Assembly: GCA_947589025.1 (NCBI GenBank)
Contig: CANQAY010000006.1
Coordinates: forward strand, 2,755-66,754
Reading direction: 5' to 3'
DNA: 64,000 nucleotides
DNA from: an uncultured Clostridia bacterium
GTDB lineage: Bacteria > Bacillota > Clostridia > Christensenellales > UBA1242
In this document: positions 25 through 47,030 of the stretch, in pieces
Layout: every line of letters begins with the position of its first letter
Numbering within the stretch: the stretch's first letter is position 1
The notes under the pieces: model-generated
What the model saw: the letters and a program-made list of their open reading frames with translations, nothing else
Told to the model about the DNA's origin: nothing
The model's database searches: none
Made by a program: the position numbers and the translations under genes

Positions 25-2274
25 TTAAACATTTTTATTCTCCTTTTTATTTAATTTAATAAATTTTAAGCGTAACGCATTAAGCACCACTGTTAAACTG
101 CTTAGCACCATTGCAAGCCCGGCAATCATTGGGTTTATAACCAAACCCACGCCCCTAAACACGCCAACCGCAATTGGCACCATTAATAAATTGTAGAAAA
201 ACGCCCAAAATAAATTCTGCTTAACATTTACAATTGTTTTTTTGCTTATGGTTAAAAAGTTTAAAATTTTTAAAAGGTCATCTTTCATTAAAATAACATC
301 GGCAGAATTCATTGCAATTTCCGTGCCATTGCTAACGCTAAGCCCAACATCGGCACTGGCTAAGGCGGGGCTATCGTTAATGCCATCCCCACACATAATA
401 ACAATTTTATTTTCTTGTTTTAATTGTTTAATAATGTTGGCTTTTTCTTTTGGCATAACGCCCGCAAACACCCGCTTAATGCCCAATTGCTTTGCAAAAA
501 TTGTGGCAGTGTTAACGTTATCCCCCGTAAGCATAAATGTTTCTATATGTTGTTTGTTTAAGTTTAAAATTAGTTGTTTGGCGTTAGCTTTAAGCAGATC
601 GCTAACCCCAAACAACGCACCAACTTGCCCATCAATTGCCAAATAAACTATGCTGTTGCCCAAGCTGGATAATTGCTTTTCTTGTTCGGTATATTCATTT
701 TTAATTTTTAACTTTGCCAACAATTTTGCGTTGCCCATTGCAACTTGCATATTTTTAATTTTGCCCACAACACCAAGCCCGTTTAATGTTTTAAAATTTT
801 CCACTTTTAAAAGCTTTAATTTTTGCTCTTGCGCCCTCTCTTTAAACGCGTTTGCAATAGGGTGAGACGATAAACTTTCCATCGAACAAGCATAAGTTAA
901 TATTTGCCGTTCGGTTAATTTGTTAAATTTTAAAATTTTTGCAATTTTTAGTTTGCCCAAAGTTAACGTGCCAGTTTTATCAAACACCACCGCTTTTGCT
1001 TTGTTTGCAAGCTCTAAAGATTCACTTTTTTTAACTAAAATTCCGTTTTTTGCGCTTAACCCCACACTAACCACTATGGCAAGCGGAGTTGCAAGCCCAA
1101 GTGAACATGGGCACGCCACCACCAAAACGGTTACAAATGTGTTTAACGCCGTGTTAAAGCCAAACCCAGCAATTAAATATGCAACAAAGCTAATTATTGC
1201 CACGGCAATTATAGATGGAACAAACACCGCACTAACCTTATCCGCCACCTTTGCAATTGGCATTTTTGTGTTAGAGGCTTCCACCACCAGGTTAACAATT
1301 TCACTAATTGTTGAATTTTTGCCTATGCGCTCGGCAACATATTCAATATATCCATCAAAATTATAGCTGCCCGCAATAACATTATCCCCTACTTGTTTGC
1401 TGTTTGGCTTACTTTCCCCAGTAATAAAGCTTTCGTCTAAATGGGCGTTGCCCAAAACAATTTTGCCATCAACGGCAATTTTTTCACCCGCCCGGCAAAT
1501 AACAATATCGCCTTGCTTAATTTCGTCTATGCTAACAAGTTTTTCGCCCCCATTTTGCTTTATTATGGCTTGATTTGGGGTTATTTGCACCAATTCTTTA
1601 ATTGCTTGCGTGGTTTTATTTTTGCTTAGGCCATCAATAAATCTGCCAAGTTTAATAAAATACACAATAACGGCACAACTTTCAAAATATAAGCTGTTTA
1701 CATATGCGTGCGCGCCGCGGCAAACCATAACAAACGAAAAGATGCTATAACCAAAACTTGCCAAAACGCCCAAGCACACCAAACTGTTCATATTTGGATG
1801 CAATTTAAACAACGCTTTTATGCCGGACACAAAAATATCTAGCCCATAAAACAAAAATGGAATGGTTAACACAAGCAAGGTTATTGCATAGCTTAAACTT
1901 GCTGAATGCATGTTTAAAAATGATGGAATGGGCAGGTTGATCATTGCGCCCATAGAAATATATAACAAAACGGCCGTTAACACGCCAAAAATTATAAGCA
2001 AAATTTTGTTGGTTTTAATTTTTTTTGCTTCACTATTAAACTTATAAATTCCCGTGCTTTTATAGCCCGATTGTTTAATAAAATTTTCTATTTGCTTTAT
2101 GTTTAAAACTTGCTCGTCATATTCAATGGTGGCATTTGCCATAACAAGGTTTACATTTGCACTTAAAATGCCATTTTGTTTGCTTAAATGCTTTGTTATT
2201 GCGTTAGAGCAAGCCACACATGTCATTCCGCTAATGCCCAATGTTATTTTTTTCATATTAATAATATACCACAA
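25..2274 (-). CDS. copA: Heavy-metal (Cu+/Ag+ type) P1B-type ATPase
   Basis: 749-aa ORF with HMA motif GMTCVACSNAI, membrane CPC motif (ACPCSLGLATP), DKTGTLT phosphorylation site and GDGINDSPAL hinge. The likely true start is the internal ATG at 2256 (MKKITLG). Confidence 0.93.
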   Translation of the reverse strand: MWYIINMKKITLGISGMTCVACSNAITKHLSKQNGILSANVNLVMANATIEYDEQVLNIKQIENFIKQSGYKSTGIYKFNSEAKKIKTNKILLIIFGVLTAVLLYISMGAMINLPIPSFLNMHSASLSYAITLLVLTIPFLFYGLDIFVSGIKALFKLHPNMNSLVCLGVLASFGYSIFSFVMVCRGAHAYVNSLYFESCAVIVYFIKLGRFIDGLSKNKTTQAIKELVQITPNQAIIKQNGGEKLVSIDEIKQGDIVICRAGEKIAVDGKIVLGNAHLDESFITGESKPNSKQVGDNVIAGSYNFDGYIEYVAERIGKNSTISEIVNLVVEASNTKMPIAKVADKVSAVFVPSIIAVAIISFVAYLIAGFGFNTALNTFVTVLVVACPCSLGLATPLAIVVSVGLSAKNGILVKKSESLELANKAKAVVFDKTGTLTLGKLKIAKILKFNKLTERQILTYACSMESLSSHPIANAFKERAQEQKLKLLKVENFKTLNGLGVVGKIKNMQVAMGNAKLLAKLKIKNEYTEQEKQLSSLGNSIVYLAIDGQVGALFGVSDLLKANAKQLILNLNKQHIETFMLTGDNVNTATIFAKQLGIKRVFAGVMPKEKANIIKQLKQENKIVIMCGDGINDSPALASADVGLSVSNGTEIAMNSADVILMKDDLLKILNFLTISKKTIVNVKQNLFWAFFYNLLMVPIAVGVFRGVGLVINPMIAGLAMVLSSLTVVLNALRLKFIKLNKKENKNV
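2257..2271 (-). promoter_or_regulatory. Extended -10 promoter placed for a leaderless copA start
   Basis: The minus strand reads TGgTATATT, then 6 nt (attaat), then ATG at 2256. No Shine-Dalgarno is present. Confidence 0.5.
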
Positions 2275-2331: not shown

Positions 2332-3285
2332 TTATTTTTTATCTTTAGATTTTTTTTCACGTTTTGGCTTGGTTATAGAGGTAAACATCTCTTTTAACTT
2401 ATGCTCATGCTCTTCTTCCCTAACCTTTTCCACCCTGGCAGGAAGGCCCTTGCCTGCAACTGGCATTTTAACAACATCGGTGCGCTCACGCATTTCAATT
2501 TGATTAAATGGAACAGAAATGTTGTTGCGTTTAAACTCGTTATAAACATTTTCAACCACATAATAGTAAACATCCCAATAATCTGCGTTATCACACCAGC
2601 AGTTAGAAAAGAAATCTAGGCTGCTAGAATTTAAAGTTTTTAAGCGGCAGAAAGGTGCTGGGTCTAAATAAACTCTGCCGTCACTCTTCATAACATCGGT
2701 TACAATTTTCTTAACCAATTCAACATCACTTTCGTAGGCAACTGAAAAGGTAAAATCTACCCTACGTTTTGGGTAAGCGCCCAAGTTAACAACATTATTG
2801 TTAATTATGCTTGTGTTTGGCAAAGTTATGCGCCTATTGTCTAGCGAAATAAGGGTTGTAAACATAAAATTAATGTCGGTTATGCTGCCCTCAACACCGT
2901 TAACAACAATATAGTCGCCCTTCTTGAACATATGGCTTGAAATAATAATAATTCCGTTTGCCACGTTTGCAATTGCATTTTGAAGTGCCATACCAACAGC
3001 CAGTATAACAGCACTTAATGCGGTTAACAAACCAGTAATTTCCACCCCAACATGGTTTAACAAAATTAAAATTAAAACTAGCCACAACACAAATTTTAAA
3101 ATTGTGCATAAAAATTGCTGTGCAATTTTTTCCATTTTGGTTTTGCTTAAAACCTTTTTTAATGTTGACATAATAACTTTAATTAAAATAATGCCAACAA
3201 TTAAAATGGCGAAGAAGAATACAATATTCCAAATATTATTTTTAAAAAAATTGACAATATTGTTCCAAATTTCGTTCCAATTCAT
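2332..3285 (-). CDS. Mechanosensitive ion channel family protein (MscS-like)
   Basis: 317 aa with N-terminal TM helices followed by an MscS-type beta domain (GDYIVVNGVEGSITDINFMFTTL, RRITLPN). GGAGGT Shine-Dalgarno upstream. Confidence 0.8.
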   Translation of the reverse strand: MNWNEIWNNIVNFFKNNIWNIVFFFAILIVGIILIKVIMSTLKKVLSKTKMEKIAQQFLCTILKFVLWLVLILILLNHVGVEITGLLTALSAVILAVGMALQNAIANVANGIIIISSHMFKKGDYIVVNGVEGSITDINFMFTTLISLDNRRITLPNTSIINNNVVNLGAYPKRRVDFTFSVAYESDVELVKKIVTDVMKSDGRVYLDPAPFCRLKTLNSSSLDFFSNCWCDNADYWDVYYYVVENVYNEFKRNNISVPFNQIEMRERTDVVKMPVAGKGLPARVEKVREEEHEHKLKEMFTSITKPKREKKSKDKK

Positions 3286-3377
3286 AATAAACCTCCAAAT
3301 TATTACAAAAAAATTTTAGCAATATGCAAAACAAATGTCAAATAAAAATTAAAAATTTTTAAAAAAAATAAATCCCG

Positions 3378-13184: not shown

Positions 13185-13286
13185 ATTTGCCTCCAACTAT
13201 CGCAATTATAACACACAAAATGAGGCTTGTCAATAGCAAAAATTTAAAAACTCCGCATTCGCGGGTTTTTTATTTTTTAAGGTTGA

Positions 13287-13327
13287 GATTGCCACGCGGC
13301 TTGATGGACAAGCCACCTCGCAATGAC
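13287..13327 (+). repeat. GC-rich hairpin repeat (GATTGCC...CTCGCAATGAC family), copy downstream of PFOR
   Basis: Sequence GATTGCCACGCGGCTTGATGGACAAGCCACCTCGCAATGAC. The ends ATTGC/GCAAT and the internal GGCTTG/CAAGCC are self-complementary. Related copies lie at 16868-16990. Confidence 0.6.
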
Positions 13328-13345
13328 ATTGATTAATTGGGTTTT

Positions 13346-16762: not shown

Positions 16763-16867
16763 AAAAACTCCTTTTAATAACATTGTACACCTTTTTGTTT
16801 CATTTTCAAAATAAAATTTAGTTTATTTTATGCGGGCACAAAAAAAGCGCTTTCTAGCGCAATTAAT

Positions 16868-16901
16868 GTCATTCTGAGCGAACGAAGTGAGCGTGAGAAT
16901 C
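16868..16901 (-). repeat. GC-rich repeat, inverted copy
   Basis: GTCATTCTGAGCGAACGAAGTGAGCGTGAGAATC. Its reverse complement, GATTCTCACGC...CTCAGAATGAC, matches the ends of the 13287 copy. Confidence 0.55.
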
Positions 16902-16905
16902 TAAA

Positions 16906-16937
16906 GATTGCCGCGTCGCTATCGCTCCTCGCATGAC
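16906..16937 (+). repeat. GC-rich repeat, direct copy
   Basis: GATTGCCGCGTCGCTATCGCTCCTCGCATGAC shares the GATTGCC...CTCGCA(A)TGAC ends. Confidence 0.55.
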
Positions 16938-16950
16938 AGGGATGAACTAT

Positions 16951-16990
16951 TAATGACATTATTGACCCCTCGTAATGACAGTGAGGGGTT
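16951..16990 (+). repeat. Partial repeat copy plus hairpin
   Basis: Contains AATGACATT and CGTAATGACA end motifs and the hairpin ACCCCTC/GAGGGGT (16965-16971 with 16983-16989). Confidence 0.4.
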
Positions 16991-36176: not shown

Positions 36177-37586
36177 TCATCTAACAACATCTATTTTTAA
36201 AAGATTTGTGCAACCAAGTTGTTTTGGCGTGCCACAGGTTATAACAATAGTGTCATTAGGCTTGGCAAAGCCGTGTTTTTTAACCAGTTCGCCCGCAATT
36301 TTAAACATATCGTCAGTTGAATTATACACGCGCGTTAAAACTGGCTTAACGCCCCAAAATAATTCTAGCTGCCTAAACACCTTTTCGTTAGGTGTGGCGC
36401 CCACAATAATGGTGGCTGGACGGAACTTGCTAACCATAATTGCGGTAAGCCCGGTGGTGGTAAAGCCAACAATTGCCTTGGTTTGCTGCAAAAAGCTGGC
36501 GTTAACCGCGCTGTGGGACACAACATCGGTGGTGTTTTTAAGTTTGTTTTGATTGGAACAAAAGTTTTTATAATAATTAATGTGCCTTTCCGTTTCCGCA
36601 CACACGTTAGACATGGTTTTAACTGCCTCAACTGGGTATTTGCCCATGGCAGTTTCACCCGATAGCATAACGGCGCCAGAGCCATCGTAAACCGCGTTAG
36701 CAACATCGCTAACCTCGGCACGCGTGGCGCGGTTGTTGGTTATCATGCTTTCCAACATTTCGGTTGCCGTTATTGTTGCCTTGCCCATGGCGGTTGCCTT
36801 TTTTATTATGGTTTTTTGAAGTTCTGGCAACTTTTCCATTGGCATTTCCACGCCCAAATCTCCACGCGCAACCATAACTGCGTCGCTCTCTATAATAATT
36901 TCATCCAAATTTTTAACCCCAAGTGCAGATTCAATTTTTGAAATTATTTTAATATCCCCACCATTTTGGGCAATAAAGTTTTTAAGATCTAACACATCTT
37001 GCCTGCTGTTAACAAAACTTGCCGCCACAAAATCTACATCATTTTTTATGCCCCACAAAATGTCCGCTTTATCCGCCGCGTTTAAATATGGCGTGTTAAA
37101 TTTAACGCCGGGCAAAAACAGGCTTTTACGGTTGGCTATAACGCCCGAGTTTAATGCCTTAGTTATAACATCTTTGCCCTTAACTTCAAGCACATTAAAT
37201 TTAATTAGCCCGTTAACAGCCAAAATTTTGTTGCCGGGCTTTATGCTTTTAACAATGGCCGGCTCGTTTAAACTAACAACCTCATTGTTGCCTTCAACAT
37301 CGCGCGCGGTAAAAGTAAAAATTTGCCCACGCTTAATTAAGGCACTGCCACCCTTAAATGTTTTAACGCGAATTTCCGGCCCGCGCGTATCAATCATTAC
37401 TGGCAGCGGAATATTTAATTCCTTCCTGGCGCGCTTAACGTTTTTAATAATTTCATCCATATCTGGCTGCTTAGCGTGGGATAAATTTATCCTCACCATG
37501 TTAAGCCCACCAACGCACATTGCCTTTAATGTTTCATATTTCATGCAACTAGGGCCAATTGTTGCCACAACTTTTGTTTTTTTCAT
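36177..37586 (-). CDS. pyk: Pyruvate kinase
   Basis: 469 aa with KIVATIGP-type N-terminus (KVVATIGPS), MVARGDLGVE and the typical domain order. GGGGAGA SD. Confidence 0.95.
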   Translation of the reverse strand: MKKTKVVATIGPSCMKYETLKAMCVGGLNMVRINLSHAKQPDMDEIIKNVKRARKELNIPLPVMIDTRGPEIRVKTFKGGSALIKRGQIFTFTARDVEGNNEVVSLNEPAIVKSIKPGNKILAVNGLIKFNVLEVKGKDVITKALNSGVIANRKSLFLPGVKFNTPYLNAADKADILWGIKNDVDFVAASFVNSRQDVLDLKNFIAQNGGDIKIISKIESALGVKNLDEIIIESDAVMVARGDLGVEMPMEKLPELQKTIIKKATAMGKATITATEMLESMITNNRATRAEVSDVANAVYDGSGAVMLSGETAMGKYPVEAVKTMSNVCAETERHINYYKNFCSNQNKLKNTTDVVSHSAVNASFLQQTKAIVGFTTTGLTAIMVSKFRPATIIVGATPNEKVFRQLELFWGVKPVLTRVYNSTDDMFKIAGELVKKHGFAKPNDTIVITCGTPKQLGCTNLLKIDVVR

Positions 37587-37683
37587 TTTCTCCCCTCTAT
37601 AAAGTTAATTATATCAAAAACTAACTTATTTAAAAAACATTTTAAATATTTTTGCTGGAAATTAATTATTTTTTATAAATCTA

Positions 37684-37711
37684 TTGAAAATTTTTTAATT
37701 TTTGATATAAT
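37684..37711 (+). promoter_or_regulatory. Promoter of the structured RNA upstream of ssrA
   Basis: TTGAAA (37684-37689), 16-nt spacer, extended -10 TGaTATAAT (37703-37711). Confidence 0.6.
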
Positions 37712-37717
37712 TATATT

Positions 37718-38200
37718 GTAGCAATTAATAATGATAGCCTTTGTGCGGCACGATAAATCATCCAAGTCGCGTTTTAAGAGTTAACGCAGTGCTCTAAAAT
37801 TTAACGAGGCCCACGCAAAACAATTTATTTGTTTTGTGGTGTAAAGGAACGAACAAATCTAGGCTTATGTTTGCAACGCTTTGCAAACTAACAAAGATGC
37901 ATCACCTTTAAATTTGACCTTTTTAATAAGGAAAAGGAGTAATGAGGGAAAAACAGCCTATTGGGGCCCCCACAAGAACTTGCTCGGGGTCCCCATAAGA
38001 AAATCTTTCGAAATGGGGTGAGTCGCAGTGGGGAGCGCAGCCCGCAAGTGCCAATCGAACAAGGGCAGATACTTCTGCACGGTGAGATATTAACTTGCTA
38101 GGGCGAGCATGTTCCCTCATAGAAGCGGTGCAAACAAATAACAAGTTAACGTTTGCGCCGTGCAACAAGCAAACTAACATAAATGCAGTTTGCACCGCAG
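37718..38200 (+). ncRNA. Unclassified structured RNA (about 480 nt) directly upstream of tmRNA
   Basis: The G+C content is higher than the surroundings and there is no credible ORF. Many strong helices are present. Examples are 37942-37950 with 38112-38120 (9 bp), 37962-37970 with 37986-37995 (GGGGCCCC stem), 38125-38135 with 38188-38198 (11 bp), hairpin 37869-37888, and 37814-37823 with 37829-37838. Strand inferred from the promoter and from continuity with ssrA. Confidence 0.5.
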
Positions 38201-38557
38201 GGGGATGAATTAGTTTCGACTATCAAATTATTTGTTTATACGCATGCCGAGCGACATCTCGTTAAACATGTGTTCGTTTGCTCGAACTTAAATAAACGCT
38301 AAAAACGAAAATAAACTTGCTTACGCTGCCTAGTTGCACGTAGCCGTCGGTTTAATGGTACCGATACATTAAAATCTGGCGTCGATTATCGGTTAACGCC
38401 AACATTTATTGCCTAGTGAATGTTGGTGTAAACATAGGCTAGCCAAATTAAAGTGTTAATGTTAGTTTAGTTTGGCGAAAATAGTCATTAACTAAGCATG
38501 TAGTGTATGGGCAATTACTTTGGTAGGACAGGGGTGCAACTCCCCTCATCTCCACCA
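38201..38557 (+). ncRNA. ssrA: Transfer-messenger RNA (tmRNA)
   Basis: The 5' end GGGGAUG pairs with the 3' CAUCUCC-ACCA, including a G3:U pair. A T-arm is present (GGGG-UGCAACU-CCCC). The tag reading frame GCT AAA AAC GAA AAT AAA CTT GCT TAC GCT GCC TAG (38298-38333) encodes AKNENKLAYAA. Confidence 0.9.
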
Positions 38558-38560
38558 AAC

Positions 38561-38592
38561 AAAAAAGCAGTCGCATGACTGCTTTATTTATA
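38561..38592. terminator. Terminator after ssrA (bidirectional)
   Basis: Stem GCAGTC/GACTGC (38567-38572 with 38577-38582), flanked by an A-run and TTTATTTAT. Confidence 0.7.
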
Positions 38593-39522
38593 TTCAAACT
38601 CCAATTCTGTTTTGCGGTCGTAAATTTCGCCTTGAGGGGTATCTAACATTGACTTTGGTGTGGATTTGCGGGCATAACAATAGTTGCAGCTGTGGCGGCA
38701 GGTATCGTAGCGACCAATGTCAATTGCTGGCATGCAACCGCAAAACTTACGCTGACCGTCAACTTTGTTGTTTTTGTGTTTCACGGTTATGTTTTCATCT
38801 TTAAATTTTTCGGTTAAAAGCGCTTCAAAAATTGCACCATCTATACATTTGCTTGGCAAAATGTTGTATTTACTCCAATCTCCACTTTCCGCGCACGCTT
38901 CAATTTGTATAACGTTTTTGCTTGCAATTTGTGAAAATTTTGCTAAAATTTCATTTTTTTGTTGTAAATTCGGTGCAAAAACGGTTTTTGAACATCCTTT
39001 ATAACTTTCAATTACAAAACTTATTTTGCAATGCTTTGTATAACCCTTTAATTGCTCGCACAAATATGTAAATTGTTTAATATGCCAATCTACATCAATT
39101 CCATTTGTCAGCAAAATTGGGTCATAACGCCATATTACAGGGCAAAATTTTGTTAGTTCTTTAAATGTTTCAATTCGTTCATTTAGTGTTGGCAATCCGC
39201 CTTCAATATTTTGCGGATAAGCGTTTAAGGTGAACAAAAAATAGTATTTATAATCTTTAATTTTTTCTAATTTATTTAACATCGGCTTTGGGTTTTTTGA
39301 CCAAAACACAATGCCCTCAATGTTGCCTTCTGTTTCAACTTTTTTATCGCCCAATAAATTATATTCAACGCTTTTAATTTTAAATGGTTTAAGTTCAATT
39401 TTTGCAATTTTACTTGGGTTAATTGGATTAGGAACAAGCACAAAACCCTCATCTAGTTGCTTAAAAAACCAATCACTATAAAACGCAGGAATATCTGTCC
39501 GCCTAGAAACGCTTAAAATCAT
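38584..39522 (-). CDS. DUF1848 domain-containing protein
   Basis: 312 aa with N-terminus ILSVSRRTDIPAFYSDWF and a C-terminal Cys cluster CGCMPAIDIGRYDTCRHSCNYCYA. Family assignment is from memory. Confidence 0.65.
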   Translation of the reverse strand: MILSVSRRTDIPAFYSDWFFKQLDEGFVLVPNPINPSKIAKIELKPFKIKSVEYNLLGDKKVETEGNIEGIVFWSKNPKPMLNKLEKIKDYKYYFLFTLNAYPQNIEGGLPTLNERIETFKELTKFCPVIWRYDPILLTNGIDVDWHIKQFTYLCEQLKGYTKHCKISFVIESYKGCSKTVFAPNLQQKNEILAKFSQIASKNVIQIEACAESGDWSKYNILPSKCIDGAIFEALLTEKFKDENITVKHKNNKVDGQRKFCGCMPAIDIGRYDTCRHSCNYCYARKSTPKSMLDTPQGEIYDRKTELEFEYK

Positions 39523-40172
39523 TATCTTACTCCATAAATTATTATACCTCTTCCGTCCAAAATGTCAAACTTTTTAAACTTAAAAGCCGGCTTTAATTTA
39601 TTTATTAATTTATCTATAAAATCTTGTTCTTCTTTTGGCATGTGATAATTGCTGTTAATCGTATAATCGCAAATTAAATAAAAATTATCCTGATGTTGTA
39701 AAGCCTCTAGCAATTCTTTCTCCAAATTAGAATTGTTAGAAATTGTAAATAAAGAGTTGAAGAAACAAACGACTAAATTTTGTTGTTTACCTTGTAACAT
39801 ATATGTTCCAACATCATATTTTATGGTTTTGGGTAATTTGGGTTCAAAATTTTTATAAGCATCGGTTTTTTTAATAGCCCAATCACAATCATCAACACCC
39901 CAATATTTAACATTCTCAAAAACTTCACTTGCACCAATGTAATCCAAACCAAGCCCACAGCCGAAAGAAAATATAGTTGGTATCTTAGTGCCAATATGAT
40001 TTTTCAATTCGGCAAAACTTTCTTTATTCTTTTCGTAGTTCTTTTCTGCGTATTCTTTTAAATAATTTAAGTTAGAACATAAGTTATCGTAATCCAAGTG
40101 CCCGGCACAATCTTTTTTGCAATGTTCACAAGATGGAAATTTATAATTCTTCCATAAATTTTCAATTTTCAT
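39522..40172 (-). CDS. Putative class I SAM-dependent methyltransferase
   Basis: 216 aa with a motif I-like FSFGCGLGLD and an N-terminal Cys-rich segment. Its stop overlaps the DUF1848 start. AGGAGA SD. Confidence 0.45.
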   Translation of the reverse strand: MKIENLWKNYKFPSCEHCKKDCAGHLDYDNLCSNLNYLKEYAEKNYEKNKESFAELKNHIGTKIPTIFSFGCGLGLDYIGASEVFENVKYWGVDDCDWAIKKTDAYKNFEPKLPKTIKYDVGTYMLQGKQQNLVVCFFNSLFTISNNSNLEKELLEALQHQDNFYLICDYTINSNYHMPKEEQDFIDKLINKLKPAFKFKKFDILDGRGIIIYGVR

Positions 40173-44753: not shown

Positions 44754-47030
44754 TTATTTCCTTTTCCGTTTAGATTTATAAAAATCTTTAGCCGAGTTTT
44801 TAGATTTTTTGCCTGATTTTTTTATTTTTTTGCCAATTTTTGTGGCAATTTTTTTATTTTTTAATAAATTTTTGCTGTTTTCTTTTTTATCCCACGCGTT
44901 TTTGTTAGCCTTATTTTTGTTAACAATAAAGTTTTTTAGCGGTTTTTCCACCCCTGCCAAATCAAAATCTATTTGCCTAGCCAAGGTGTTAACATTTGAA
45001 ACAACCACGCGCACGCTATCCCCAATTGTGTAGTGGTGAGATTTGCCATAGATGGTCATTTTATCTTCATCATAAATATATTCGTCTAGCGGCAGATAGT
45101 CGGTTTTTATCATGCCTTCAATGCCGTTATCCAGTTCCACAAAAATGCCAAACTCCTGCACGCCTGAAATAATGCCATCAAACTCCTCACCCAAAAACTT
45201 TTGCATATAAACCGCTTTTTTATAATCATCCACCGCGCGCTCTGCCTCATCGGCAATTTTTTCCGTGTCGCTTGCCTGAATGCTTGCCCTTTCCACCGTG
45301 TCGGTAAAATGTGCTTTAACTTCCGCCTTTGGCGTGCCGGCAAGCACGCTTTTAATTATGCGGTGAATTAATAAATCGGGGTATCTTCTAATTGGGCTGG
45401 TAAAATGGCAATAGTGCGTCAGCGCCAAGCCAAAATGCCCAAGGCAGGTTGGTGCGTAACGCGCCTTCATCATTGTGCGCAAAATTAAGTATGACAAAAT
45501 CTTTTCTTTTGGCGTGCCAGCAATTTTATCCACAATCTGCTGATATGCGGCAGGTTGATCGCCATTAAGTTTTAAATTGTTTGCAACGCCCAAATTTGTT
45601 AAAAGTTCACTTAGGCGCAAAACTTTTTCGCTATCCGGTTTTTCATGCACACGATAAACAAACGGCAAATTGCCCGCCCATTTTGCCACAATTTCATTGG
45701 CTTTAACCATAAAACTTTCAATAAGTTCGTGAGCCTCGTCCTGCACGCGCTTTTCAATTGTAACAATTTCCCCTGCTGCGTTTTCCAAAATAAATGGCTC
45801 GGGCAAATTAAAGCGAATTTCACCCTGCTTTAACCTATCCGCCTTAAATTTGTTTGCAATGTCGCGCATGGTTAAAATGTCCTTATACAGGTCGGCATAT
45901 TTTTCAATAACAAGCGTGTCCCCTTCAAAAATTTTGGTTATTTCAGTGTACGTCATGCGGTGTTTGCTTTTAATAACGCTTTCAACAATGGCAGAATTCT
46001 TTACATTATATGCCTTATCCAGCTCCATTTTAACAGTTAAGGTTAGCCTATATTCATTTTCATTTAACGAGCATATGCCGTTTGAAAGTTCTTTTGGCAG
46101 CATTGGTATAACATGGTTTGGAAAATACACACTTGTGCCCCGCCTGTAAGCCTCTTTATCCAGCGCGCTGTTCTCTTTAACATAGTGCGAAACATCCGCA
46201 ATGTGCACATACAAAACCACGCCGTTTGCGTTGCGCGTAAGAGAAATTGCATCGTCAAAATCGCGTGCATCCTCACCATCAATTGTAAAGGCGTTATGGC
46301 TGGTGTAATCTGCACGGCTTTTTTTATATTTGCTATAATCTACAAATTTTTCAATGTTTTTAGTTTCGTTAATTGTTTGTTTTTCAAATTCGTCTTTAAG
46401 TTTGTAAGAGCGGATGATTGAAAGTTGCTCGGCCTTCATTGTGTTGGCCTGACCAAGCACCTCCACTACCCTGCCCGTTAATGTTTTACTATCCAAACTT
46501 GAGGGGTTAATTTCCACATAAACTTTATCGTTATTATGAGCGCCGCGGGCATCATTTTTGTAAATGCGCACTTGCGGCAATTTAACATCGTCGGGGAAAA
46601 CAACATTTTTATTTTTGCCCTCCACAAAAGTGCCCACCAAGTGTGTGGTGTTTCTTTTAATAACTTTAACAATTTTGGCCTCTATGTCCGTTTCCGTTCG
46701 CATGTTGGTTATTTCCGCCAGCACGTCGTCACCATCAAAGGCGCCGTTAATGGCGTAGGACGGGATAAATAAATCTGGCCTGCCCTCCACTGAGGCAAAG
46801 CCAAAACCCTTTTTGTTTAGCGTAAGCCTAGCTTTAATGTAACCCCTATCGCGAGAAATAGAAATTCTGCCCCTATCATCCACAAAAAGAGTGCCATCGT
46901 CAATCAATTGCTGCACTTCAGTTTTAATATCTTTAATGCTAAGGTTGGTTAATTTTTTAATTTCTTTACAAATAGTTTCAAAATTTAAATAAATTAATTG
47001 GTTATCTCGTATAAGTTTAATGTAATCCAT
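44754..47030 (-). CDS. rnr: Ribonuclease R
   Basis: 758 aa with cold-shock-like domains, an RNB catalytic domain (DFDDAISL), a C-terminal S1 domain and a Lys-rich tail. Confidence 0.95.
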   Translation of the reverse strand: MDYIKLIRDNQLIYLNFETICKEIKKLTNLSIKDIKTEVQQLIDDGTLFVDDRGRISISRDRGYIKARLTLNKKGFGFASVEGRPDLFIPSYAINGAFDGDDVLAEITNMRTETDIEAKIVKVIKRNTTHLVGTFVEGKNKNVVFPDDVKLPQVRIYKNDARGAHNNDKVYVEINPSSLDSKTLTGRVVEVLGQANTMKAEQLSIIRSYKLKDEFEKQTINETKNIEKFVDYSKYKKSRADYTSHNAFTIDGEDARDFDDAISLTRNANGVVLYVHIADVSHYVKENSALDKEAYRRGTSVYFPNHVIPMLPKELSNGICSLNENEYRLTLTVKMELDKAYNVKNSAIVESVIKSKHRMTYTEITKIFEGDTLVIEKYADLYKDILTMRDIANKFKADRLKQGEIRFNLPEPFILENAAGEIVTIEKRVQDEAHELIESFMVKANEIVAKWAGNLPFVYRVHEKPDSEKVLRLSELLTNLGVANNLKLNGDQPAAYQQIVDKIAGTPKEKILSYLILRTMMKARYAPTCLGHFGLALTHYCHFTSPIRRYPDLLIHRIIKSVLAGTPKAEVKAHFTDTVERASIQASDTEKIADEAERAVDDYKKAVYMQKFLGEEFDGIISGVQEFGIFVELDNGIEGMIKTDYLPLDEYIYDEDKMTIYGKSHHYTIGDSVRVVVSNVNTLARQIDFDLAGVEKPLKNFIVNKNKANKNAWDKKENSKNLLKNKKIATKIGKKIKKSGKKSKNSAKDFYKSKRKRK

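Follow-up and report, generated by a model that had tools for sequence, protein, structure and literature searches.

The 5' leader of the transfer-messenger RNA (tmRNA) precursor, or pre-tmRNA, usually amounts to a few nucleotides, as it does in Escherichia coli, and such leaders draw little attention. We know of no pre-tmRNA whose 5' end is not processed by RNase P, an enzyme whose substrates normally have a single-stranded leader. The intervening sequences of 23S rRNA are sporadic inserts closed by a helix and removed after transcription, and they are tolerated as processing discards them. Among described interspersed repeats, the one known as bcr1 in the Bacillus cereus group measures about 155 bp, is transcribed and displays compensatory changes (PMC3184786), and RPE repeats are reported to lie within the tmRNA and RNase P RNA genes of rickettsiae, where they can be read in frame (PMC2229807, citing Ogata 2002). 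Here, we analyzed a 64-kb stretch of DNA from an uncultured Clostridia bacterium (64,000 nt, contig CANQAY010000006.1 of assembly GCA_947589025.1, positions 2,755 to 66,754; hereafter the window), in which the tmRNA gene, ssrA, is preceded by about 480 nt of G+C-rich, strongly folded sequence. A first-pass annotation had taken this region for a large unclassified structured RNA with its own promoter; we hold, with moderate confidence, that it is not a separate gene but a pre-tmRNA leader of composite make-up, with a structured interspersed repeat inside it.

The tmRNA gene was located at 38201-38557 on the plus strand by ARAGORN and by the Rfam model RF00023 (152.4 bits, E = 5e-60, with a gathering score of 47), and its tag peptide is AKNENKLAYAA according to ARAGORN. 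It is followed by an intrinsic terminator (38564-38585, plus strand) with a 9-bp stem and a T-rich tail, and is divergent from the pyruvate kinase gene, pyk (36177-37586, minus strand). Between both genes stands the near-consensus extended -10 promoter reported by the first-pass annotation (37684-37711, plus strand), consisting of TTGAAA, 13 nt and TGATATAAT, that is, TTGAAA and TATAAT separated by 16 nt with TG upstream of the latter, which matches the consensus at 11 of 12 positions. The promoter scan of the plus strand returned it as the sole promoter-like site within 37400-38800, with no second promoter in the leader, and the terminator scan of the same strand found no terminator-like site from this promoter to the tmRNA, bearing out the earlier claim that nothing of the kind stands ahead of ssrA. 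With no terminator before ssrA, the 489 nt from the -10 element to the mature tmRNA 5' end must be read as a giant pre-tmRNA leader, which runs uninterrupted between the ssrA promoter and the mature end.

Related genomes were retrieved through the divergent pyk gene, and correspond to uncultured gut Clostridia or Candidatus Onthoplasma-like metagenome-assembled genomes from rabbit, goat and chicken. The divergent pyk/ssrA layout and the promoter (TTGAAA-N13-TGnTATAAT) are kept in six relatives, in which the distance from the -10 element to the tmRNA is 8 nt (L004, 67% pyk identity to the window), 10 nt (L001, 81%), 64 nt (L061, 71%), 129 nt (L072, 70%), 145 nt (L003, 72%) and 215 nt (L002, 81%). 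Since the same promoter is found at widely varying distances, in some relatives only 8-10 nt from the tmRNA, it is the conserved promoter of ssrA and not that of a discrete large RNA, and the window holds an expanded tmRNA-precursor leader. L001 and L004 display the ordinary short-leader arrangement, and the range of 8-215 nt indicates that the leader is labile and lineage-specific; parts of it have homologues at the orthologous ssrA loci, but the complete element seen in the window does not recur there. In leaderless L001, a stretch of about 30 nt with the -35 element (TTTTTATAAATTCTATTGAAAATTTACTAA) is tandemly repeated just upstream of the ssrA promoter (630-760, minus strand).

The mosaic nature of the leader is most apparent in the comparison with L002, in which three blocks are kept: block 1 (37772-37798), block 2 (37917-37958, 39/42 positions identical) and block 3 (38113-38198, 82/86 identical). 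For scale, 326 of 357 tmRNA positions are identical between the two genomes, and 86 of 163 (53%) of the fourfold-degenerate sites of pyk; the identity of the blocks, being far above that of the fourfold sites, shows that they are under constraint. L002 lacks two stretches, one of about 118 nt (37799-37916) and another of about 150 nt enclosed by the helix that joins 37942 to 38120. Homologues and covariation were thus found for parts of the leader, but the 480-nt unit as a whole is not conserved. Two further, independent short-read assemblies end inside the leader: L059, which bears the exact pyk of the window and belongs to the same strain, stops at the position corresponding to 37954, and L060, a relative with 97% pyk identity, at that corresponding to about 37795. 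Both breaks could stem from low coverage or strain heterogeneity, or from the repeats and duplications that the leader contains.

The second piece missing from L002 belongs to a dispersed structured element, of which the window contains one copy (W, 37942-38120, plus strand, 179 nt) closed by the helix 37942-37950/38112-38120. As DNA searches had failed, an antisense open reading frame (ORF) of 90 aa across the region was used as a probe, its translation being matched to annotated ORFs, and a profile search was carried out afterwards. Copy S was found through protein P0121 on four identical contigs from four samples (L067-L070), and copy T through P0122, in the profile search, on contig L071. 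W and S are 96% identical over 81 nt, and W and T 91% over 98 nt, the flanks of the three copies being unrelated and the similarity confined to a core of 80-120 nt; hence, the element occurs as multiple dispersed copies at three loci or more, and neither S nor T is near a tmRNA gene. The antisense ORF does exist, as first annotated, and was rejected as a gene in agreement with that annotation, given that the ORFs spanning S and T are its sole relatives and that six of seven substitutions between W and T change its amino acid.

Copy S lies between a gene for a 338-aa protein and a polysaccharide deacetylase gene, and copy T just after rpsR, between the double terminator of this gene (L071 3219-3266, minus strand) and a further strong terminator (2977-3002, minus strand) that stands about 50 nt after the copy. 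The three copies are in sense orientation relative to the downstream gene, which is the tmRNA gene for W, the polysaccharide deacetylase gene for S and a gene for a 206-aa protein without known function for T. The scan detected no promoter-like site ahead of T, and ahead of S only a weak one (TTGTCA, 17 nt, TATAAA). Contig L070, with copy S, shares a sample and similar coverage with L059, the contig bearing the exact pyk of the window, and in a second sample L069, with copy S, and L071, with copy T, likewise have similar coverage; all three copies are therefore probably from one species, or from the same genome. Neither the covariance model built on the element (R1), which scores W, S and T at 126-133 bits, nor blastn found a further copy in the 64-kb window or in the loci of the relatives. 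The possibility that a repeated or mobile element explains the region, stated at the outset as a ground for refutation, was borne out in part, as the strongest and most G+C-rich domain of the leader is a repeat also found away from tmRNA.

When folded independently, W and S give the same architecture, namely a closing helix, a short CCCC../..GGGG arm whose tip varies, and a second arm that is long and irregular. In W, the nested arm is formed by CCCCAC 37968-37973 with GUGGGG 38028-38033 and by CCCCAU 37991-37996 with AUGGGG 38013-38018 (plus strand); these two nested helices, favored by both folding and comparison, replace the GGGGCCCC/GGGGUCCCC (GGGG-U-CCCC) hairpin proposed in the first-pass annotation. 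The long arm (38035-38108, plus strand) contains the pairings GC/GC, GCCCGCAAGU/ACUUGC-UA-GGGC, AUC/GAU, a tandem GA/GA, AC/GU and GCAGA/UCUGC. Over the 75-nt 3' part, W and T display seven differences, six of which make three compensated pairs, from C-G to U-A at 38056/38086, from A-U to G-C at 38059/38083 and from G-C to A-U at 38068/38075, the seventh being in a loop; at least three compensated pairs would arise from seven randomly placed transitions with P about 5e-5. Furthermore, U replaces the C of a C-G pair in copy S, and the resulting U.G is tolerated on the plus strand only. To judge from these substitutions, the secondary structure of the element is kept by selection.

Regarding the ends of the element, the closing helix ATGAGGG../..CCCTCAT is common to W and T, and their ATGAGGGAA/TTCCCTCAT sequences may represent terminal inverted repeats. 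Copy S closes with CAATGAC/GTCATTG, from the ends of the two inverted REP-like units on either side of it. In L002, the orthologous site holds a 34-nt hairpin with the W-type closing helix and without the interior of about 145-150 nt, a presence/absence difference of the kind displayed by interspersed repeats; because copy T shares the same closing helix, we read the L002 state as an internal deletion. The REP-like hairpin repeats have a base of GTCATTGCGAGG...GCG(T/G)GGCAATC (inverse ...CTCACAATGAC) and a variable tip, and were located in the window at 13280-13330 and 16860-16985 (minus strand) and in L067 at 3245-3300 and 3081-3110 (minus strand). One such unit directly follows the stop codon of a 1145-aa ORF, and about three lie upstream of that ORF; allowing at most one mismatch, GTCATTGCGAG occurs twice in the window, where 0.36 occurrences would be expected by chance. 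Our literature searches on the flanking REP-like motif and on long pre-tmRNA leaders returned nothing specific.

A possible second type of constraint concerns the reading frames. All six compensatory substitutions between W and T are also synonymous in sense frame 0, which in the window runs from UUG 37961 to UAG 38101 (plus strand) and in copy T is an AUG-started frame of 39 codons (L071 3190-3071, minus strand); the frame-0 peptides of W and T end in ...SGERSPQVPIEQGQ(I/T)LLHGEILTC. In only 5 of the 22 pairs can a compensatory change be synonymous at both paired positions, and each of the three covariations falls among these five (C(5,3)/C(22,3) = 0.0065, a post hoc count obtained from three sequences). 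In copy S, however, this frame is interrupted by UAA and one Pro has become Leu, no start codon or Shine-Dalgarno sequence is common to the copies, and the peptide is hydrophilic, none of which is the profile of a small ORF or a type I toxin; the peptide had no match in Pfam, NCBIfam, PHROGs or PDB. The synonymy in frame 0 may reflect a dual constraint, or be the trace of a coding past.

Outside the element, the leader is built from further hairpins. Segment A (37718-37810, plus strand) comprises the 5' hairpins, including GCGGC/GUCGC and GAGU..GCUC, which are part of the minimum free energy (MFE) structure. It is conserved in L060, where GUCGC is replaced by GCCGU opposite GCGGC, a change by which a G.U and a G-C pair trade places and after which pairing survives on the plus strand only; the stretch TTTTAAGAGTTAACGCAGTGCTC of this segment is common to the window and L002. 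Segment B (37838-37912, plus strand), which includes the 8-bp tetraloop hairpin at 37869-37888, is absent from L002 and is an internal paralogue of the hairpin module adjoining the tmRNA in block 3. Just 5' of the element, a small hairpin (CCUUUUU/GAAAAGG) followed by AAGGAG (37917-37941, plus strand) is also present in the MFE structure.

The module of block 3 (38125-38198, plus strand) has a base helix of 11 bp that encloses an inner GUUUGC/GCAAAC hairpin, its isolated fold having a z-score of -4.46. It is homologous to the last 75 nt or so of the L072 leader, in which the inner helix becomes GUUUGU/ACAAAC by a compensatory change; in each of the three comparisons between block 3, segment B and the L072 leader, none of 2000 shuffles reached the observed score. 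Several lineages therefore possess an ancestral hairpin adjacent to the tmRNA, which was lost in L001 and L004 and partly duplicated in the window lineage. Both duplicated modules described inside the leader by the first-pass annotation were recovered by a repeat search. A candidate pairing of the leader motif AAACUAACA(U) (37885-37893 and 38171-38183) with UGUUAGUUU (38456-38474), in the 3' pseudoknot region of the tmRNA, amounts to 10 bp in the window; as it is not kept in L072, whose sequence was read by eye, we treated it as probably due to chance.

With regard to composition, the G+C content of the leader is 0.43 overall, and windows across 37875-38174 reach 0.42-0.53, compared to 0.15-0.26 in the flanking spacer, in accordance with the enrichment originally described. 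The plus strand of the leader folds with an MFE of -150.1 kcal/mol (z = -4.26; minus strand, z = -2.47), and the full-leader structure contains most of the strong helices predicted in the first-pass annotation, including the 9-bp helix 37942-37950/38112-38120, the GCAGA/UCUGC hairpin at 38065-38078 and the hairpin at 37869-37888. The 11-bp helix 38125-38135/38188-38198, which stops two nucleotides (AG) ahead of G38201, is a perfect inverted repeat and forms in the MFE structure of the isolated module, but in the full-leader structure 38125-38135 pairs with the nearer alternative partner 38150-38160; likewise, the GCAAAC/GUUUGC pairings of block 3 in the two folds are mutually exclusive.

A cmscan search with Rfam 15, whose families include RNase P, 6S, SRP, group I/II introns, OLE, GOLLD, ROOL, HEARO, raiA and the self-cleaving ribozymes, assigned no family to the leader at the gathering score or at E ≤ 10, consistent with the failure of the first-pass annotation to match it to RNase P, 6S, SRP or introns. 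The other element copies also had no match at the gathering score, and what appeared at E ≤ 10 corresponded to chance-level eukaryotic microRNA, long noncoding RNA and small nucleolar RNA entries and weak bacterial small RNA or leader entries, all below the gathering score. Two exact patterns had no match in JGI metagenomes; one represented block 2 and the other the duplicated GCAAACTAACA module, neither being drawn from the conserved core. Two candidate origins were tried and rejected: a phage or plasmid source, as blastn (11-base words) and exact-pattern and back-translated scans of viral contigs gave no match, and a degenerate tandem copy of the tmRNA, to whose 3' end the leader shows short collinear matches, as local alignments were no better than those of shuffled sequences (47/300 and 276/300 shuffles reached the score).

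Compared with the described systems, the leader resembles ordinary pre-tmRNA leaders in its dedicated ssrA promoter, in the tRNA-like 5'/3' end of the downstream RNA and in that it would be discarded to give the mature G1; it differs from them in its length of about 485 nt, in being structured up to position -3 and in containing blocks conserved like the tmRNA itself. Like bcr1, RPE, ERIC, BOX and Correia repeats, the element measures 100-180 nt, encodes no transposase, occurs as dispersed copies with unrelated flanks, would be transcribed within neighboring units, and has ends that pair; its fold is kept by compensatory changes, as in bcr1. In contrast, it has no sequence similarity to these families, only three copies are known, no terminal direct repeats were recognized, and the third copy lacks the shared closing helix. 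It also differs from simple cruciform repeats, as it folds into a junction in which one of the arms is long and irregular, and from the RPE of rickettsial tmRNA, as the copy is in the leader and not in the mature tmRNA. The resemblance to the intervening sequences of 23S rRNA lies in a sporadic, helix-closed insert in a stable-RNA transcription unit; those are in the mature RNA and are cut by RNase III, whereas the present one is in a leader and has a closing helix of 9 bp. Similarly, the leader shares with OLE, GOLLD, ROOL, HEARO and raiA a high G+C content and extensive structure in an A+T-rich genome, together with an absence of coding capacity, but it gave no covariance match at E ≤ 10, is not conserved as a unit and has been found so far in one species.

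We propose that transcription from 37684-37711 would run about 840 nt to the terminator at 38564-38585, and that the tRNA-like end of the tmRNA would direct RNase P, as in known tmRNA maturation, to cut at G38201, thereby freeing a leader of about 485 nt. The leader may have grown in two ways, by partial duplication of the older hairpin module of about 75 nt (38125-38198) upstream, at 37838-37912, and by acquisition of the element copy at 37942-38120, which sits between the two module copies and would be tolerated as a passenger without contributing to the function of tmRNA. Direct observations on these loci are the identity of the promoter, the differing lengths of the leader, its mosaic of homologies, the copies of the element elsewhere and the covarying pairs. 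Several points weigh against this proposal. Co-transcription and processing of the leader are steps that we infer from the sequence. A stable 11-bp helix predicted to end 0-2 nt from the cleavage site would be unusual for an RNase P substrate, and the conservation of blocks 2 and 3 with L002 at or above the tmRNA level argues that at least part of the leader is functional and not baggage. Each of the six compensatory changes is, moreover, synonymous in one of the sense frames, which a pure passenger model would not predict. In addition, the terminal inverted repeats of the closing helix are common to only two of the three copies, no clear target-site duplication was recognized (TA flanks are present, which is uninformative in an A+T-rich genome), and no transposase was found among ten scanned ORFs near the leader. 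The element is known from three copies, which came to light by way of an antisense ORF that gene-calling software had chanced to annotate.

Some of these same observations would fit a functional small RNA, the core element or perhaps the whole leader using the strong ssrA promoter and RNase P for its expression and maturation and belonging to a paralogue family possibly linked to ribosome rescue. Its structure is maintained by compensatory change, its G.U pairs fit the plus strand, which also folds better (z of -4.26 against -2.47), it is G+C-enriched within an A+T-rich genome, W, S and T are all sense to the downstream gene, a strong terminator follows T, and blocks 2 and 3 are as conserved as the tmRNA. 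We nonetheless regard a small RNA as unlikely, as the copies have no common promoter (T lies behind two terminators with none, and S has a weak one), L002 lost the core while keeping the tmRNA and the rest of the leader, L001 and L004 are leaderless, and the patterns used retrieved no homologue beyond one species in viral, plasmid and JGI metagenome collections. Less probable still is a core that is, or recently was, a gene for 39-46 aa with a highly structured mRNA, comparable to the mRNAs of type I toxins or to palindromic repeats that code for protein; a short ORF would then be part of the leader. Such a gene would explain why, of the seven W/T differences in the 3' core, six are synonymous in sense frame 0 and six change the amino acid in the antisense frame, why the three covariations all fall among the five dual-compatible pairs (0.0065), and why T has an AUG-started ORF of 39 codons. 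It would have to do so with no conserved start or Shine-Dalgarno sequence, since the frame in the window opens only at UUG 37961 and T lacks a ribosome-binding-like site, with an in-frame UAA and a Pro-to-Leu change in S, with upstream parts of W and T that are in different frames owing to a 38-nt length difference, and with a peptide that is not hydrophobic and is unmatched in Pfam, NCBIfam, PHROGs and PDB; besides, the statistic is post hoc and drawn from three sequences.

The notion that a single ancient, ornate RNA of about 480 nt, belonging to no described class, is encoded as one unit ahead of ssrA stays closest to the first-pass annotation, of which the structured, noncoding-looking nature of the region and its condition of giant leader stand. 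The strong fold, the G+C enrichment and the lack of an Rfam match agree with it, but the relatives with 81% pyk identity are either leaderless (L001) or have 215 nt missing two large pieces (L002), the pieces differ in history, one involving internal duplication and another a dispersed repeat, and the metagenome, viral, phage and plasmid searches gave no match; we consider a single large RNA already largely refuted and hardly tenable. Scarcely better placed is a riboswitch-like cis-regulatory domain acting on the downstream gene, which at ssrA would control the maturation of tmRNA by way of the competing pairings in block 3. The genes that follow the three copies are unrelated (tmRNA, polysaccharide deacetylase and a 206-aa protein), with no common gene class, even though the element is sense and upstream of a gene at all three loci. 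The junction is closed by a P1-like helix, the block 3 GCAAAC/GUUUGC pairings are mutually exclusive and a terminator stands about 50 nt past copy T; however, no U-tract follows block 3, promoter-like sites intervene between copy T and its downstream gene (at S, one seen by eye and unconfirmed by the scan), and the element is absent from the orthologous L002 site, all of which makes regulation of this kind very improbable. Finally, it is conceivable, although we would not expect it, that 37942-38120 and its paralogues constitute a new functional class of structured RNA, possibly dual-function through the 39-46-aa frame, which in this lineage became part of the ssrA transcription unit, so that its synthesis would parallel that of tmRNA and RNase P would set it free, with the conserved hairpin adjoining the tmRNA controlling the rate of maturation.

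As for the surroundings of the locus, the DNA 3' of the tmRNA differs in each relative. It contains DUF1848 and a gene without assigned function in the window (38584-40172), a phage-type integrase gene in L061 (1074-2237) and, in L002 (709-3243), an 844-aa ORF whose C-terminal modules are repeated; such variation is the usual pattern of islands integrating at ssrA. The gene for RNase R, a known partner of trans-translation, is found in the window at 44754-47030 (minus strand; RNB, CSD2 and S1 domains), 6 kb from ssrA.

Returning to the composite leader carrying an interspersed repeat, its role is most likely passive, and its distribution so far is one species. The locus represents a pre-tmRNA leader of about 485 nt built by duplication and by uptake of a structured repeat, with parts as conserved as the tmRNA, and the covariance model R1 is provided for an undescribed repeat family in poorly known gut Clostridia. 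If the added sequence is baggage, RNase P processing would shelter a stable-RNA gene from insertions, in parallel to the rickettsial RPE insertions; if the hairpin adjacent to the cleavage site or the repeat is functional, the locus may represent a case of regulated tmRNA maturation, or a new small RNA derived from a tmRNA precursor.

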